Positions 1,951-40,746 of a stretch of DNA of 50,970 bases are shown piece after piece. Within the stretch, counting starts at the first letter, position 1. Each line of letters begins with the position of its first letter. The translations under genes and the position numbers were made by a program. The stretch covers positions 1 through 50,970 of the IMG/VR virus record IMGVR_UViG_3300032212_000014; one strand, 5' to 3'. The DNA comes from a virus. Taxonomy: Duplodnaviria > Caudoviricetes. A model generated the notes under the pieces. It searched no databases and was not told where the DNA came from. It was given only the letters and a program-made list of their open reading frames with translations.

Positions 1951-2794
1951 GTGCTACCTCTTCCTTCCCATCCTTGGGCTTCTTGGCGGTTTTGGTTTTG
2001 GGTTCTTCTTCCTTCACCGCGTTCTTGCTAATGAACTCGTTGATCATGGGTGCGAAAACTTCCGGCCATTCGGCGGCTTCCTTCTCTGCCAAATCTGCGT
2101 AGTCGCTTTCTACAAGGTGATCGCGGATCTGATTCATCGTGATGCCGTTTGCCTTGGCATGGTTCTCAAGACCAATGGCACGATCGTCGCCGAACGGTTT
2201 ATGCTGCGGCTCTACATTGAGCTTGGCACGCACACGGTTTGCCCCTGCTCCGCTGCTTCCGCGAGCCTTGGGAGGCTGCCTGTCGCCTTGCTGGTAGCCT
2301 TGTGCCATGTTCCCATCGTCATCGTCGCCGGTCGTGATGCCAAGCGCAGCAAGGATGCTGTATCGCCGTGCATAAGTAACCGCCGATGCAAACTCCTGGG
2401 GGCCGACCTCATTGGTTTTGCGGTGCGGTGTCACGGGGAGCACAACCGGGGGGAATGTTAAAAACTGCCCGCTGCTGTGATTCAATGTGGTCTGAACTTC
2501 AACACGATCATTATGTGTGATTATCGATTGGCTTGGCATGAGCCCGTGCTTTGCCATTGCAGGGCGGATCTCTCGCACAACTGCATCAAGTGTTGCGTAC
2601 TTGTTGCCCGAGTGATTGTTCTTCGCATCCATTCCAACGGTATCAAACTCGCCCCACGCCTTCACCATCGCCATGCGTACTTCGTTGGTTGGTGGTTCTG
2701 GAATCTGTACAGGCGGCACAACAACTTGTGCGATTGCTTGCTGGTCGATCATTTCGTCTGGTGTGTTTTGCTGGGACATAGTTCGTGTGCTCAC
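1937..2794 (-). CDS. erf: ERF-family single-strand annealing protein
   Basis: KYATLDAV, LNHSSGQF and SAVTYARRYSILAALGITTGDDDDG signatures; next to the exonuclease. Confidence 0.92.
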   Translation of the reverse strand: MSTRTMSQQNTPDEMIDQQAIAQVVVPPVQIPEPPTNEVRMAMVKAWGEFDTVGMDAKNNHSGNKYATLDAVVREIRPAMAKHGLMPSQSIITHNDRVEVQTTLNHSSGQFLTFPPVVLPVTPHRKTNEVGPQEFASAVTYARRYSILAALGITTGDDDDGNMAQGYQQGDRQPPKARGSSGAGANRVRAKLNVEPQHKPFGDDRAIGLENHAKANGITMNQIRDHLVESDYADLAEKEAAEWPEVFAPMINEFISKNAVKEEEPKTKTAKKPKDGKEEVAHEQG

Positions 2795-3696: not shown

Positions 3697-4252
3697 TGCG
3701 ATTCCTTTGGTTAAACCCGTGTGATTTTGCCGCGACCGGATTGGTCATAATCAAGATCCCATCCTCACCCAATGACGGGGTTCTTGTGATCTTGATGCGG
3801 AGGTCGGTCTTGTGATTACAACTGTCCTCGAAATCGAAATGAGCGCGAAGTGCTTTGACGATCGATCGACTGGTGTATTCATCGCTGTCGTTTATCCTGG
3901 TGATGAAATCAACATCGCCGCCAAGGGCTTCGCTCTCATACACTTCGTCGAACGAGATCCCCGCGAGCAAGCACACCGAATAGGGCGGCAGTTCTCGCTG
4001 AAACTCTTGCTTGGTGACATGAACGAGCTTGAGGTTGTGGCACACTTGGCAAAGTAAACCAAGCACGCTTCGTATCCCATTCGCTTCGAGCATACCTGTT
4101 GCGCGAGGGAACGGCAGGCAGCTTTCCATCAGGCCCAGCCACACATTTCGCACATGGGCAATCGATGTCGGATGGATGAAGTCTGGACCGAACGAAGCGG
4201 TACAGGGAACTACACAATCATCCCCGATCATTATTGTGGGTCGCTCGCTCAT
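3680..4252 (-). CDS. hypothetical protein
   Basis: 190-aa ORF coupled to neighbours. Confidence 0.6.
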   Translation of the reverse strand: MSERPTIMIGDDCVVPCTASFGPDFIHPTSIAHVRNVWLGLMESCLPFPRATGMLEANGIRSVLGLLCQVCHNLKLVHVTKQEFQRELPPYSVCLLAGISFDEVYESEALGGDVDFITRINDSDEYTSRSIVKALRAHFDFEDSCNHKTDLRIKITRTPSLGEDGILIMTNPVAAKSHGFNQRNRNGYYR

Positions 4253-4780: not shown

Positions 4781-5508
4781 AACGGCACGCTCCCATTGTC
4801 AAGACGCTTGTTGGCAATGGCCACAAAGTCGGGGTTCAAGTCGCCGCCTGTGTAACGGCGATTGAGCCGTTGTGCCACCACCGCCAGCGAGCCAACACCG
4901 CAACAACTCTCGGCGACCGTATCGCCTGGATTGGTGTAGGCATGGATCAATCGCTCAAGGGGTTCGGGTGGGAGCTGGCACGGATGCCCCTCCACACGAT
5001 GCTTGCTCGTCCCTTGCAGGCGTCGAACGGTCCAAACGGTGTCAGGCACCCGCGGCCCCTTCGCTCGCTTGTCGCCGGCGAGCATCCGTTGGCTGGGCAC
5101 TCGGATATGCTCGGTGTTCCAAGTGTGCTTTGGACCCTCGATCTTGTGAATGATCAAGTGACGGTGAGCCTTGGTCCAGTTGTGTTGGTTGTATTGCGAG
5201 AAGCGTTCATGCCAGATGATGCGGGCGAGCGGATCGCCGTACTGCTCGATCATCCAATCAGCAACAACATGAGCGTGGGCATCGCTGATCAAGACCGCGA
5301 TCACCCCGCCTGGACGCAAGCAATCACCGAGACCATCAATCCAGCTACGAAGCATCTCATGGTATCGGTATGTTTTTCTATCGTCACTGATACCATGGCC
5401 GTAGTCAACGCCTTGGTTATATGGCGGATCGATGAAACCGAAGTCTGCATCGGTCACATGATCAGAGAGGGAGCAAGCCTCGGATTGAACAGCACGATGA
5501 TGATTCAC
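4777..5508 (-). CDS. DNA N6-adenine/N4-cytosine methyltransferase (beta class)
   Basis: IDPPYN precedes HPCQLP and TNPGDTVAESCCGVGS (degenerate motif I). Confidence 0.9.
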   Translation of the reverse strand: MNHHRAVQSEACSLSDHVTDADFGFIDPPYNQGVDYGHGISDDRKTYRYHEMLRSWIDGLGDCLRPGGVIAVLISDAHAHVVADWMIEQYGDPLARIIWHERFSQYNQHNWTKAHRHLIIHKIEGPKHTWNTEHIRVPSQRMLAGDKRAKGPRVPDTVWTVRRLQGTSKHRVEGHPCQLPPEPLERLIHAYTNPGDTVAESCCGVGSLAVVAQRLNRRYTGGDLNPDFVAIANKRLDNGSVPF

Positions 5509-6008
5509 GATGCTCCGCCTTTACACGCGTCAAGATCCACACTGTAAATCCGCTGCTGGCCTCGAACTTGAACCGGCTCATCAAGCACCTTGACATGAGT
5601 GAGCATCCAGACCCAGCGGCCTACGGAGTAATCGCCCCACTTGTCAGTCAAGACCATGCACTCTCTACCAAACCCCTCGCCAAATGCGTACTTCTTCCTG
5701 CTGACCCGATTGATCTTAAATGCGCCCTGGATCACCGCAGTACAGAGCACCACGCCACGGGGCAATGGTCTCAGCGCCAACGGAATACTCAAGCTAGATT
5801 TGATGGGATACATACCGGCCTTGATCAATGAACCAACGATCTCGCCGGTCTCAAAAGGTGGTCGCTCATGCGGGATACGCTTGGCGGCATGGATCGCGAT
5901 TCGCTCGCCGATCATGCTCTTGGGCGGTGCCCATGATCTTGTTTCGCAACGCTTCGTACCACAGGCAATCAGCGAGGCGTATGGCTGGTGGAGTGTTATG
6001 CACTTCAT
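5505..6008 (-). CDS. ASCH domain protein
   Basis: ITLHQPYASLIACGTKRCETRSW and IAIHAAK signatures. Confidence 0.9.
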   Translation of the reverse strand: MKCITLHQPYASLIACGTKRCETRSWAPPKSMIGERIAIHAAKRIPHERPPFETGEIVGSLIKAGMYPIKSSLSIPLALRPLPRGVVLCTAVIQGAFKINRVSRKKYAFGEGFGRECMVLTDKWGDYSVGRWVWMLTHVKVLDEPVQVRGQQRIYSVDLDACKGGAS

Positions 6009-6304: not shown

Positions 6305-7625
6305 CGTGATCTCCGAGCACGGTTTCGAGCAAGGCGACAAGGCGGCCTTGCTGAAAGAGTGCTTCTTTCAGGAGATCGATTGAATCAGACGATTTAGGTT
6401 TCGGTTTCGGGTCCGAGCTTCCCCCCCGGAGGGGGGCCTCTTTTGCTCTGAACCCTAATAATGACCCCAGCGGGATTTGAACCCGCGTTGTCTGATTGTT
6501 CGATCTCGGCGGCGCTGAACCCCCAAGGCCGATAGTTAGCGGGGTTGCAAACGCCGGGAATCTAAATGCTCCATCGGCACCATCATCATCTCCGCCTTCA
6601 TGTTGCTTGTCAAGTTGGGTACGCACTTGCTTGCGTGTTTTCGGCCCCAGATTGGCGAGGTCGCGAGTGCTGTTAACATCGCAACTCAAGTAGTGATCGA
6701 ACATTACCTTCGGGTCTGCGTGCCGTGAAAAAAAGTGTAATCTTTTTGCTTGATCCACAGTTGCGACATCATACCGAGTCTGGATTGCACACTTTCGGAA
6801 CCGATGCCAACAGCCTCGCACCACTTCACTGGTCTCGATCCCGCACGCTGCCATATCGAGCTTGAGCGTGTTGTGATCCGGCCACTTCTCAAAGAGCATA
6901 CAACCGGTTGAAAACTTCTTCCACTCGATAAGGATTTCAACAATCTCGTCACTCAGCGCCACACGATCACCACGGCGAGCCTTGTCGTCCGTCACGACCA
7001 TACAACGCTTTTCGAGGTCGATGTCCGACCACTCTTGCCGTCGCGATTCAGTCCGCCTCATGCCCGTGTGATACAAGAACTGATACACCGTCGAACGCAG
7101 GGGACCATTCGCCCTGGCCTGCCATCGTGTTTTCTCACAATGCTTGGCGTACTCAACCAGCTTCTCATATTGTTCGTAGGTGAAAGGGGCAAGCGGCTTG
7201 CCTCTGGGCGCTCGCGGTGTCTTGATGCCCACAAATGGGTTCACTGGCAACAACTGGCTCTTGACCAAGAACTTCGCGAAGTCACGAATCGAGCTCAGTT
7301 TGTTCTTCGCCGTCTTGACCTGCCCATTGCTACACATTTCACCAAGCCAATCCATCAGCGGTAACACCTGCATGTCCTGTGGACACGCGATATTGCACAC
7401 GGCAATGTATTCGCGGACATGACGCTCCTTTGATTTCACAGTGCTCGGCCTCTGTTGAAGCCAGTTGATGCGATTGGACGCCCAGGATTCTATCAGTACT
7501 TCCATGCCGGACCCTTTGCAATCGTCCGCCCCAATAAGTTGTATCGATCCATTCCGACTAGGATCGTGATACGGTGATGTTATCCGGGTTTTTAACCCAC
7601 TGTCAACAAAAACTTTACGATACAT
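6267..7625 (-). CDS. int: tyrosine integrase (start may be 7505)
   Basis: HTGMRRTE (R), WHRFRK (HxxR) and SRHAD...HY catalytic residues; GCAAAGG RBS before the Met at 7505. Confidence 0.92.
   Translation of the reverse strand: MYRKVFVDSGLKTRITSPYHDPSRNGSIQLIGADDCKGSGMEVLIESWASNRINWLQQRPSTVKSKERHVREYIAVCNIACPQDMQVLPLMDWLGEMCSNGQVKTAKNKLSSIRDFAKFLVKSQLLPVNPFVGIKTPRAPRGKPLAPFTYEQYEKLVEYAKHCEKTRWQARANGPLRSTVYQFLYHTGMRRTESRRQEWSDIDLEKRCMVVTDDKARRGDRVALSDEIVEILIEWKKFSTGCMLFEKWPDHNTLKLDMAACGIETSEVVRGCWHRFRKCAIQTRYDVATVDQAKRLHFFSRHADPKVMFDHYLSCDVNSTRDLANLGPKTRKQVRTQLDKQHEGGDDDGADGAFRFPAFATPLTIGLGGSAPPRSNNQTTRVQIPLGSLLGFRAKEAPLRGGSSDPKPKPKSSDSIDLLKEALFQQGRLVALLETVLGDHDEHGHSADRDQS
6409..6455 (-). other. 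GC-rich interrupted hairpin immediately downstream of the attP core
   Basis: GGGTTC-AGAGC...CCCCCC TCC GGGGGG...GCTC-GGACCC on the minus strand; no U-tract. Confidence 0.5.
6462..6497 (-). other. putative attP core: 3' fragment of a host tRNA (Glu/Asp-like)
   Basis: Minus strand AATCAGA-CAAC-GCGGG TTCAAAT CCCGC-TGGGGTC-A gives a T-arm plus acceptor 3' strand with no matching 5' half; it lies within int. Confidence 0.75.
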
Positions 7626-7871
7626 AAACTCCCCTAAATACGATCAGGCATTAAAGGGGGGAACTTATACGATTTTATACTTTTGGGATATTCACAAAAC
7701 AGCCATAATCCTAAATAGCAGGAATTAAGGCCGGAATGTTAATCTGGGGTACTCTGATGAGAAGCGTTATAGGGCTTAAACCTGATCCGCCTGTCGATTC
7801 CGTCGCGTATAACCGCGATAGGCCAGGTAGAAAACAGGCCCATATTCTGAATACGGAACAACCCACACGAA

Positions 7872-7945
7872 CCCATAGCGATAACAGGCGAGAGAATACA
7901 CCCGTTTCAATCGCCTTGGGCGCTGATTCCTGTTTCGCTTATGGG
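7872..7945 (-). ncRNA. predicted three-way-junction structured element downstream of the tRNA cluster
   Basis: CCCATA/TATGGG, GCGA/TCGC and AACAGG/CCTGTT helices enclose two small hairpins. Confidence 0.45.
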
Positions 7946-8744: not shown

Positions 8745-9047
8745 TCAAAGTGAACCGGAAATCGATTCCAGGTTCGTGATATGAGAAAACAAAGTCGTCA
8801 GATCAGATTCAACGAATCCAAGCAAGCTGCTATCCCCTTGCTTGTCTGATTGCACAGGCGATGGAGGCATATGGCCTGAGCCCGAGATCGAAACGATCTT
8901 CTCGCTGAGCGACAACGAGAGCTTGGATACCCGCTCATTGACATCAGCAAGGTTTCGAGCAATGTTACCAATACGCTCAGCTGTAGAGGCTGGTGTTGCT
9001 GATCCAGATATTGCTGACATTTCAGCTTGGATGGAGGCGGTGTTCAT
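8745..9047 (-). CDS. hypothetical helical/coiled-coil protein
   Basis: Start MNTASIQ after GAGGA RBS; heptad-like Ile/Leu pattern. Confidence 0.6.
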   Translation of the reverse strand: MNTASIQAEMSAISGSATPASTAERIGNIARNLADVNERVSKLSLSLSEKIVSISGSGHMPPSPVQSDKQGDSSLLGFVESDLTTLFSHITNLESISGSL

Positions 9048-9091: not shown

Positions 9092-9241
9092 CTCCAACAG
9101 CGAGAATCGAACTCGCGGGGTCGCTATCTCTTTCGAGACACGGGATGACTCCCATCTAGGCACCATGTTCGCAGTGCCGCCCCATCTACCCGAGTTGATC
9201 AAGCTCGGTAATCCGCCGATTGCCAAGACGGTCTATTGGAA
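9092..9241 (-). ncRNA. about 150-nt tRNA-like RNA with expanded multi-hairpin variable domain
   Basis: Acceptor (T)TCCAATA/TGTTGGA(G); D-like arm CCGTC/GGCGG; anticodon-like arm CCGAG-CTTGATCAA-CTCGG; three tetraloop hairpins closed by GGGG/CCCC; T-arm GCGAG TTCGATT CTCGC. Confidence 0.75.
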
Positions 9242-40102: not shown

Positions 40103-40155
40103 AACCCTTCCCCTGATCCAAGCGCATGGACGCGTCTGGGGGGAGGGTTCTTTTT
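40103..40155 (+). terminator. intrinsic terminator
   Basis: AACCCTTCCCCT/GGGGGGAGGGTT stem followed by CTTTTT. Confidence 0.75.
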
Positions 40156-40167
40156 CTAGTCACACCC

Positions 40168-40746
40168 ATGATTTCCAATGCGATCAAAAACCATGATCAC
40201 TTGAAAGACATCACTGTCTCGGACTTCCTGGATTTCTTCTGGAAGGAATGCGTCACCGGCGCGTCGCTGGTGGACATGGACAACAAATGGGTCTCCCCGA
40301 ACCCCAAGATATGCGGGCTGCTGGGGTATCCAGCCTCTCGGCTCGAAGAGATGACTTGGAGAGATGTGACGATCGAGCCGGATCGCGCAGAGGACATGAT
40401 TGCGGTCAGGGCAGTAATCACCGGCGAGATGTCGCACTATGTGATGGACAAAACATATCAGGCTCGCGGTGGGTCGCTGATCCGTGCTCGCCTGACTGTG
40501 AAGCCGATCCGGGGCGCAAATAGAGATGTGGCGATGCTGCTTAGTCAGGTGCAAGAGATCGACGGGGTGCCGGTCGGAGCAGCCGACGAGTTGCGGGTGG
40601 TGTGGGACTTTGTTGGAAAGCACAAGAAATCGCTCGGCCTGTTAGGGATGACATACACCGTGGGAGTGGCGCTCGCGGGAGACAGCGCACTCGTCTGGTT
40701 CAAGTCGGTGATCGAAGTGGTGACCAGCCTCGGAAGCGGTGGATGA
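40168..40746 (+). CDS. PAS domain protein with C-terminal membrane segment
   Basis: GASLVDMDNKWVSPNPKICGLLGY...TWRDVT.EPD...DKTYQARGGSLIRARLTVKPIR...SQVQEI is a PAS/PAC pattern; hydrophobic tail. Confidence 0.85.
   Translation: MISNAIKNHDHLKDITVSDFLDFFWKECVTGASLVDMDNKWVSPNPKICGLLGYPASRLEEMTWRDVTIEPDRAEDMIAVRAVITGEMSHYVMDKTYQARGGSLIRARLTVKPIRGANRDVAMLLSQVQEIDGVPVGAADELRVVWDFVGKHKKSLGLLGMTYTVGVALAGDSALVWFKSVIEVVTSLGSGG

Follow-up and report, generated by a model that had tools for sequence, protein, structure and literature searches.

We found that a temperate phage genome encodes, on its minus strand, a putative RNA of 149 nt that is predicted to fold like a tRNA (positions 9092 to 9240) and in which the place of the variable arm is taken by a domain that is likely, judging from its sequence, to consist mostly of a second tRNA-like unit nested within the first. 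The reading that we favor, though tentatively, is that this element is a non-decoding tRNA mimic that arose by fusion of two tRNA-type genes, would be matured by host enzymes, and may be a decoy for host proteins with tRNA-binding or tRNA-cleaving activity. All positions refer to the window, by which we mean the whole stretch of 50,970 nt analyzed, a complete phage genome (51 kb) with a 127-nt terminal repeat. The element lies near the head of a leftward run of genes, where it is followed by two small open reading frames (ORFs), a tRNA cluster (8289-7960) that begins about 0.8 kb downstream, and the integrase gene.

Predicted fold of the 149-nt element

The element runs from position 1 at 9240 to a discriminator base, G73, at 9092, with a 7/5 top half and no encoded CCA. 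The outer 5' acceptor strand (9240-9234) pairs with 9099-9093 through six Watson-Crick pairs and one G-U pair, the first three pairs being U1-A72, C2-G71, and C3-G70. It is followed by a 5-bp D-like arm (9231-9213; pair probabilities, 0.75 to 0.79) that keeps G18G19-like Gs in its loop and by a 5-bp anticodon-like arm (9208-9190) with a 9-nt loop, which contains an 8-nt palindrome and is predicted to be non-decoding. A closing helix of 4 bp (9183-9180 with 9120-9117) shuts off the insert with its three hairpins (9178-9159, 9154-9141, and 9140-9125), and a canonical T arm (9116-9100) completes the structure, the 3' part being closest to that of tRNA-Glu. The region in place of the variable arm is a multibranch domain of 73 nt and not a single stem.

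All of the stems listed in the original prediction for this locus were present on the minus strand (9240-9092). The acceptor with its G discriminator, thought to be extendable to 8 bp, extends outward to 9 to 11 bp when G-U pairs are included, and both the anticodon-like stem with its 9-nt loop and the insert of three hairpins, closed by 4 bp and followed by the T arm, were recovered as described. Most of the helix pairs had predicted probabilities of 0.59 to 1.0; the weak ones were the 2 bp of closure within hairpin 1 of the insert (0.01 to 0.02) and the outer pair of hairpin 3 (0.29). The outer acceptor (7/7), D, anticodon, and T stems are free of mismatches, and the acceptor/T helix is an intact 12 bp. 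The fold, including the acceptor and T helices, persisted when it was predicted in a context of 290 nt.

We compared these features with chance expectation. In 100 genome-sized Markov sequences, perfect T arms arose at 0.06 per sequence, and none had an acceptor partner. The folding z score was modest for the element, at about -2 (-1.94; 4 of 200 shuffles were as good, and 19 of 500 in a second run), and about -2.7 for the insert (8 of 500 shuffles). ARAGORN did not call the element, and the Rfam search that had been proposed as a check on the prediction matched no described family at 9092-9241, whether at gathering level or down to an E value of 10.

A 29-codon ORF (9288-9199, minus strand) runs into the element and stops on the TGA in the 9-nt loop, an overlap that had been noticed earlier and thought to be possibly due to chance. 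Our results point the same way: the ORF is probably incidental to the RNA, because its 26-nt start recurs at 8665-8640 and the 9-nt core of that start occurs in a sister phage with no start codon following it.

Relatives of the phage and of the element

No full-length homologue of the element was found among GenBank phages or plasmids or in pattern scans of viral contigs and genome contigs. BLAST gave only short matches at E values of 3 to 9 in GenBank phages and none in plasmids. Successive pattern scans of viral contigs returned two chance matches, none, none, and then three, one of which was the sister gene described below and two of which were unrelated; the scan of genome contigs returned one chance match. 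Comparing the phage genome by tblastn with 50,697 GenBank phage records gave no match. No relatives of the integrase were found, and the loci reached through Erf were distant.

The terminase proved more informative. A scan of viral contigs with terminase alignments (19 of 64 parts) gave distant terminases only, among the matches listed, and the same kind of scan of metagenomes (35 of 64 parts) gave at least seven family members among the 80 loci listed, two of them with 10 kb of upstream sequence. Through terminase alignments we found G002, a colinear sister phage that is 92% complete. Directly downstream of the element lies a 100-amino-acid ORF (8745-9047, minus strand), for which there was no convincing relative among 1.84 billion proteins; its weak homologues in sister phages (E values of 3e-4 and 1e-5) serve as a synteny marker and identify the matching region in G002 and in a further phage, L111. 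In G002, no giant RNA stands before the homologous ORF, which is followed by a tRNA-Met(CAU) and then by an odd tRNA-like gene of 79 nt; a BLAST search of phages with the region of the latter gave no match. The matching region of L111 holds a different element, made up of a tRNA-Trp, hairpins, and an fMet-like gene without a D stem, and the other locus with 10 kb upstream, L106, has only a tRNA-Ala before an integrase-like ORF.

Two further observations were made on these contigs. The fMet-like gene of L111 (7794-7985, plus strand) has a second possible 5' acceptor strand 163 nt upstream of its T arm. L011, from an unrelated phage, holds a candidate giant tRNA-like RNA (about 2003-2155, plus strand), in which the T arm may have its acceptor partner 126 nt upstream.

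A probable nested tRNA-like unit within the insert

When the insert was aligned to six candidate regions, five scored at chance level and the G002 cluster scored best (equaled in 1 of 300 shuffles). The 79-nt gene of this phage (L191:3744-3822) is tRNA-like but anticodon-less, with a 5-bp anticodon stem that closes a 14-nt loop. The insert aligned to it with a local score of 25, which was reached by 1 of 2,000 dinucleotide shuffles; the best of 211 tRNAs scored 20. Global alignment of the 79-nt gene with the inner part up to the T arm gave a score of 30.0, compared with a best of 20.5 and a mean of 0.2 (standard deviation, 5.4) for 204 panel tRNAs, that is, the 211 minus 7 that had no T-loop match. 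The 79-nt gene was outside this panel because ARAGORN calls it only at a lowered threshold, and the homology concerns one sister sequence, found post hoc.

The alignment to the sister gene places position 1 of the inner unit at 9172. Within the element, only two 7-mers pair at five or more of seven positions with the 3' acceptor strand, one at 9240 (outer) and one at 9172 (inner). From the sister match, the placement of position 1, and the 5/7 pairing, we read the RNA as three successive parts: the outer 5' half, a linker of 17 nt (9189-9173), and an inner tRNA-like gene of 81 nt (9172-9092) whose T arm and 3' acceptor strand also serve the outer unit. The insert is thus likely to be mostly a second tRNA-like unit homologous to the 79-nt gene of G002. 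The original prediction had pictured a tRNA-Ser-like scaffold with a structured cargo; a tRNA scaffold that carries an extra domain is what we found, but the cargo appears to be mostly a second tRNA-like gene, and the serine identity was not borne out, as detailed below. The nested arrangement may go back to a tandem fusion, to an insertion, or to an internal duplication long ago. The outer and inner units showed no resemblance to each other (score, -8), so a simple duplication is without support.

The part that the inner unit has in common with the sister gene is the stretch of the second and third hairpins (9154-9125), with one compensatory change and one G-U-consistent change between the two. 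These hairpins have been kept although the sister is distant (its terminase is 33.5% identical), and the lowest-energy fold of the 79-nt gene consists of the same two hairpins and not of a cloverleaf (-30.1 versus -27.6 kcal/mol). The inner anticodon stem and acceptor have decayed. What remains of the inner 5' acceptor strand (9172-9166) pairs at five of seven positions with the 3' strand and forms part of the loop in hairpin 1 of the insert. Folded alone, the inner 81 nt formed their own acceptor with a probability of 0.61 to 0.76; in longer forms, the first hairpin sequesters the inner strand. The outer half was truncated at five points, as far as 9179, and each time the probability of the inner acceptor was 0.0. 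In stability, the outer fold exceeds the inner one by 14 kcal/mol.

In both the closing helix and the first hairpin, the 5' strand comes from the linker. When the linker was replaced, 379 of 1,000 shuffled linkers and 182 of 1,000 random genomic 17-mers folded equally well, and the junction helices are therefore no evidence of adaptation.

Non-decoding tRNA shapes in the phage family

The tRNA cluster of the window (8289-7960, minus strand) comprises a tRNA-Glu(UUC), a circularly permuted tRNA-like gene (8215-8108), a tRNA with an 8-nt loop, and a tRNA-Met/Ile(CAU). In the permuted gene, which neither ARAGORN nor Rfam called, the 3' half comes first, followed by a 34-nt linker with a hairpin that closes the acceptor (7/7) and then by the 5' half. 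The tRNA body next to it (8107-8036) has an 8-nt anticodon loop without U33 and is likely, from these features, to be non-decoding, and the last tRNA of the cluster, with the anticodon CAU, has mismatched top acceptor pairs in both phages (8034-7961 in the window and L193 12597-12532 in G002, both on the minus strand). G002 has two tandem permuted tRNA-like genes on long handles (L193 12945-12620, minus strand), and the first of these is preceded by the motif GNCGAAN0-1G, which is described for YrlA in the available text of PMC4201824. The YrlA model of Rfam gave no match at either gene. Because of the permuted genes in the window and in G002 and the tRNA with the 8-nt loop, we conclude that shapes predicted to be non-decoding are a recurrent feature of this phage family.

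YrlA-type Y RNAs (Rfam RF02553) are non-decoding tRNA mimics that also occur in phages, and the YrlA mimic is cut by RNase P and given CCA, according to the same part of PMC4201824. A YrlA-like topology is seen in the permuted genes of both this phage and G002. The 149-nt element itself was rejected as a YrlA Y RNA, its order being normal and not permuted and the motif GNCGAAN0-1G being absent from 9300-9060. A scan of 45 plus 14 ORFs of the window gave no Pfam match to a Ro60/TROVE gene.

Possible roles of the RNA

The fusion that we favor would have left two tRNA-type genes sharing a single T arm and 3' acceptor strand. The RNA would be transcribed along with the leftward run; promoter calling over the stretch from 10147 to the element gave no sigma-70-like promoter. 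The 12-bp acceptor/T helix and the elbow loops suggest that host RNase P could cut at 9240 and that host enzymes could trim the 3' end and add CCA, which would release a stable RNA species. With its 9-nt loop, this RNA would not be expected to decode, nor would it be charged in an anticodon-dependent manner, as the anticodon determinants for Glu and Asn are absent. It might instead occupy host defenses that bind or cut tRNAs. We propose such a decoy role because of the non-decoding shapes in the family and because phage tRNAs counter tRNA-targeting defenses (PMC10264068 and PMC11555353, as far as their available text goes). That counterdefense needs a working anticodon, and changing the anticodon abolished rescue (PMC11555353, same text); the word "decoy" does not occur in the available text of either paper. 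Since both concern working or anticodon-dependent tRNAs, the decoy step stays a proposal.

A somewhat unlikely but serious alternative is that the element is a relic, in which a deletion collapsed two adjacent tRNA-like genes and the fold is a by-product, at most a mark for processing by which the mRNA downstream acquires its 5' end. A linker without special stabilizing effect would be expected of such a relic, as would the decay of the inner anticodon stem and acceptor, the failure to find a full-length homologue, and the matching place in G002 that holds no giant RNA. On the other hand, a long-dead gene is unlikely to keep the outer acceptor, D, anticodon, and T stems without a mismatch, and the inner hairpins show a compensatory change relative to the sister gene.

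The fusion reading can also be taken further. The tRNA inside a tRNA may be under selection, with the tRNA bodies of this phage family forming a kit of anticodon-less mimics (permuted, loop-expanded, and fused) that are decoys against tRNA-targeting defenses, an extension that we regard as more doubtful than the relic. If it were true, the same hairpin pair would be found on a 79-nt or a 149-nt scaffold, and the route would be unlike that of supplying cleavage-resistant working tRNAs.

It is improbable, in our view, that the tRNA shape provides stability only and that the RNA is either a scaffold that shows the conserved hairpin pair to a phage or host protein or a partner for other RNAs through its palindromic loop. 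The stretch in common with the sister gene is exactly hairpins 2 and 3, which the lowest-energy fold of that gene forms, but the comparison is of two sequences, the energy gap is small, and no partner protein was identified among the ORFs scanned. As for pairing, the loop is self-complementary and permits an extended homodimer duplex in silico (cofold, -128.0 versus 2 x -56.6 kcal/mol), and six of its nine nucleotides are complementary to the linker-hairpin loop of the permuted gene (8160-8155). By a rough estimate, however, a 6-nt match of this kind is plausible by chance among the many hairpins of the region.

Isotype resemblance and amino acid identity

The tRNA-Ser(UGA)-like identity given in the original prediction did not survive closer comparison. 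Bacterial tRNA-Ser nearly always has G1-C72 and G2-C71 (PMC9976931, in the part available), and a 7-nt anticodon loop is the rule for tRNAs (PMC7609411, likewise in part). The element has G73 in the 7/5 register (9092), as tRNA-Ser does, but its loop is of 9 nt and not 7, and we rejected it as a class II tRNA-Ser on its U1-A72 and C2-G71 pairs.

We ranked the similarity of the element to the 20 isotypes in a panel of 211 distinct tRNAs called by ARAGORN in one actinobacterial genome, in ten named phage regions, chosen mostly by means of a tRNA-Met query, and in the window and its sisters; a single tRNA-Glu picked by BLAST was omitted from the statistics. Glu ranked first of 20 for the 3' part (P = 0.0018, 15 Glu versus the rest) and for both halves summed (P = 0.0009), neither value being corrected for 20 isotypes, and Ser ranked 11th of 20. 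For the outer 5' half, the best mean was that of Asn, and the phage's own tRNA-Glu was joint second of the 211 as a single gene. In a two-sequence model, the best nontraining match was also a phage tRNA-Glu. The 9-nt loop conforms to no rule for anticodons; by inspection, the loop minus two bases gives Ser, Glu, Ala, or Ile loops alike, and it therefore identifies no isotype.

Resemblance to tRNA-Glu does not extend to its identity set of U34, U35, C36, and A37 in a 7-nt loop with G1-C72 and U2-A71 (available part of PMC9976931); the element lacks this set, and we rejected it as a tRNA-Glu. Measured against tRNA-Glu (Rfam RF00005), it is twice as long and has no Rfam match, although Glu gave the highest scores for its T arm and 3' strand. 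U1-A72, an amidotransferase mark seen in an Asn context (same part of PMC9976931), fits an asparagine reading, but Asn charging needs the anticodon, and Asn ranked only 15th of 20 for the 3' part. Class II tRNA-Ser, tRNA-Sec, and allo-tRNAs share G73 and a large variable region with the element but differ from it in having a loop of 7 nt and only one stem in the variable region (available part of PMC7609411). A tRNA-Sec was rejected, as there was no Rfam match at 9092-9241 down to an E value of 10 and the loop has 9 nt in place of UCA in a 7-nt loop. The acceptor of tmRNA has G3-U70; the element, with C3-G70, a length of 149 nt, and no Rfam or ARAGORN match, was also rejected as a tmRNA.

Whether the RNA could nonetheless be a serylated, tRNA-Ser-like carrier of cargo, as first suggested, turns on the fact that the determinants of serine identity include G73 and a large variable region and that SerRS ignores the anticodon (available part of PMC9976931). 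We hold this to be very improbable in view of the U1-A72 and C2-G71 pairs, the multibranch domain, the rank of Ser, and the 9-nt loop.

Excision or refolding of the insert

In introns of the bulge-helix-bulge (BHB) type, each strand of a central 4-bp helix is followed on its 3' side by a bulge of 3 nt. In the element, the strands of the 4-bp helix are followed by 1 nt and 0 nt, respectively, and we rejected a BHB-type tRNA intron. The idea that an intron-like insert is excised, or the RNA refolded, to release a working tRNA might draw on the permuted genes nearby and on the ability of the inner 81 nt to fold alone, but it is just as hard to credit as serylation: there is no bulge-helix-bulge, the unpaired runs being on the 5' side of the 4-bp helix and not on the 3' side; the insert matches neither the permuted genes nor their flanks (109 to 252 of 300 shuffles were as good); excision would leave a 9-nt loop; no RNA ligase or fitting endonuclease was seen among the ORFs scanned; and refolding is opposed by the inner acceptor probability of 0.0 at all five truncation points.

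Comparison with oversized phage RNAs

Oversized tRNA-like RNAs of phages have long been known, without assigned roles (PMC3014915 and PMC12685909, in their available parts). T5 RNA1 and RNA2 (AY543070), annotated as "tRNA-like stable RNA with unknown functions," and T4 rnaC and rnaD (species 1 and 2 RNAs) are 119 to 144 nt long and lie, like the element, in phage tRNA regions. In the predicted folds of T5 RNA1, RNA2, and T4 rnaC, as in that of the element, the ends are paired, a T arm is present, and the interior is enlarged. The element has no sequence likeness to T4 rnaC or T5 RNA1 beyond the T arm. In the T4 and T5 RNAs, moreover, the enlargement mostly replaces the anticodon arm, whereas the element keeps an anticodon-like arm and its extra domain appears to be a nested tRNA-like unit. 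By its size, predicted paired ends, T arm, and non-decoding interior and by its place in a tRNA region, the element fits the T4 rnaC/T5 RNA1 kind, which is a loose grouping and not a defined family.

We searched the literature for phage tRNA-like, permuted, fused, or nested tRNAs and for decoys and found no fused phage tRNA mimic in what was covered, which was mostly open access, with the older T4 and T5 work lying outside it; PMC10690425, in its available part, compiles 10,006 candidate viral RNAs. The element may be new as a fused form of the oversized phage tRNA-like RNAs, which are already known as a kind. For RNAs of that kind, the element suggests an origin by gene fusion. The natural pair of a 79-nt and a 149-nt scaffold with the same hairpins, together with the permuted neighbors, offers material on decoy action of anticodon-less shapes. 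If the element is only a collapsed gene pair, it warns that a "giant variable arm" may turn out to be a nested tRNA relic.

Host and other features of the phage genome

The ORFs of the phage include those for an integrase, RecE, Erf, terminase, SSB, and helicase. The terminase has 33 relatives at 34 to 57% identity, among them P0003, P0004, and P0005 at 55 to 57%, two of these three on contigs of 37 and 54 kb. Because a single one of the relatives carries a Phycisphaerales label, the host is likely to be a planctomycete. The leftward run that contains the element also encodes an ASCH-domain protein (5505-6008, minus strand), and a PAS-domain protein is encoded at 40126-40746 (plus strand).

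The 3' part of the integrase ORF contains a tRNA 3' half, Glu-like by inspection (about 6500-6460, minus strand), and positions 6460-6489 are exactly common to other contigs of run X1, with differing flanks. It is likely, then, that attP sits inside the integrase gene at about 6500-6460, and integration would therefore alter the C terminus of the integrase.

A 9-nt motif occurs three times in the leftward run (9297, 8665, and 8432, minus strand), two of these within the 26-nt repeat. It also occurs once in G002 (L191, about 3826-3900), where it ends a hairpin flanked by sequence that resembles a stretch of L111 (about 7800-7880), and may be another RNA motif conserved in this phage family.
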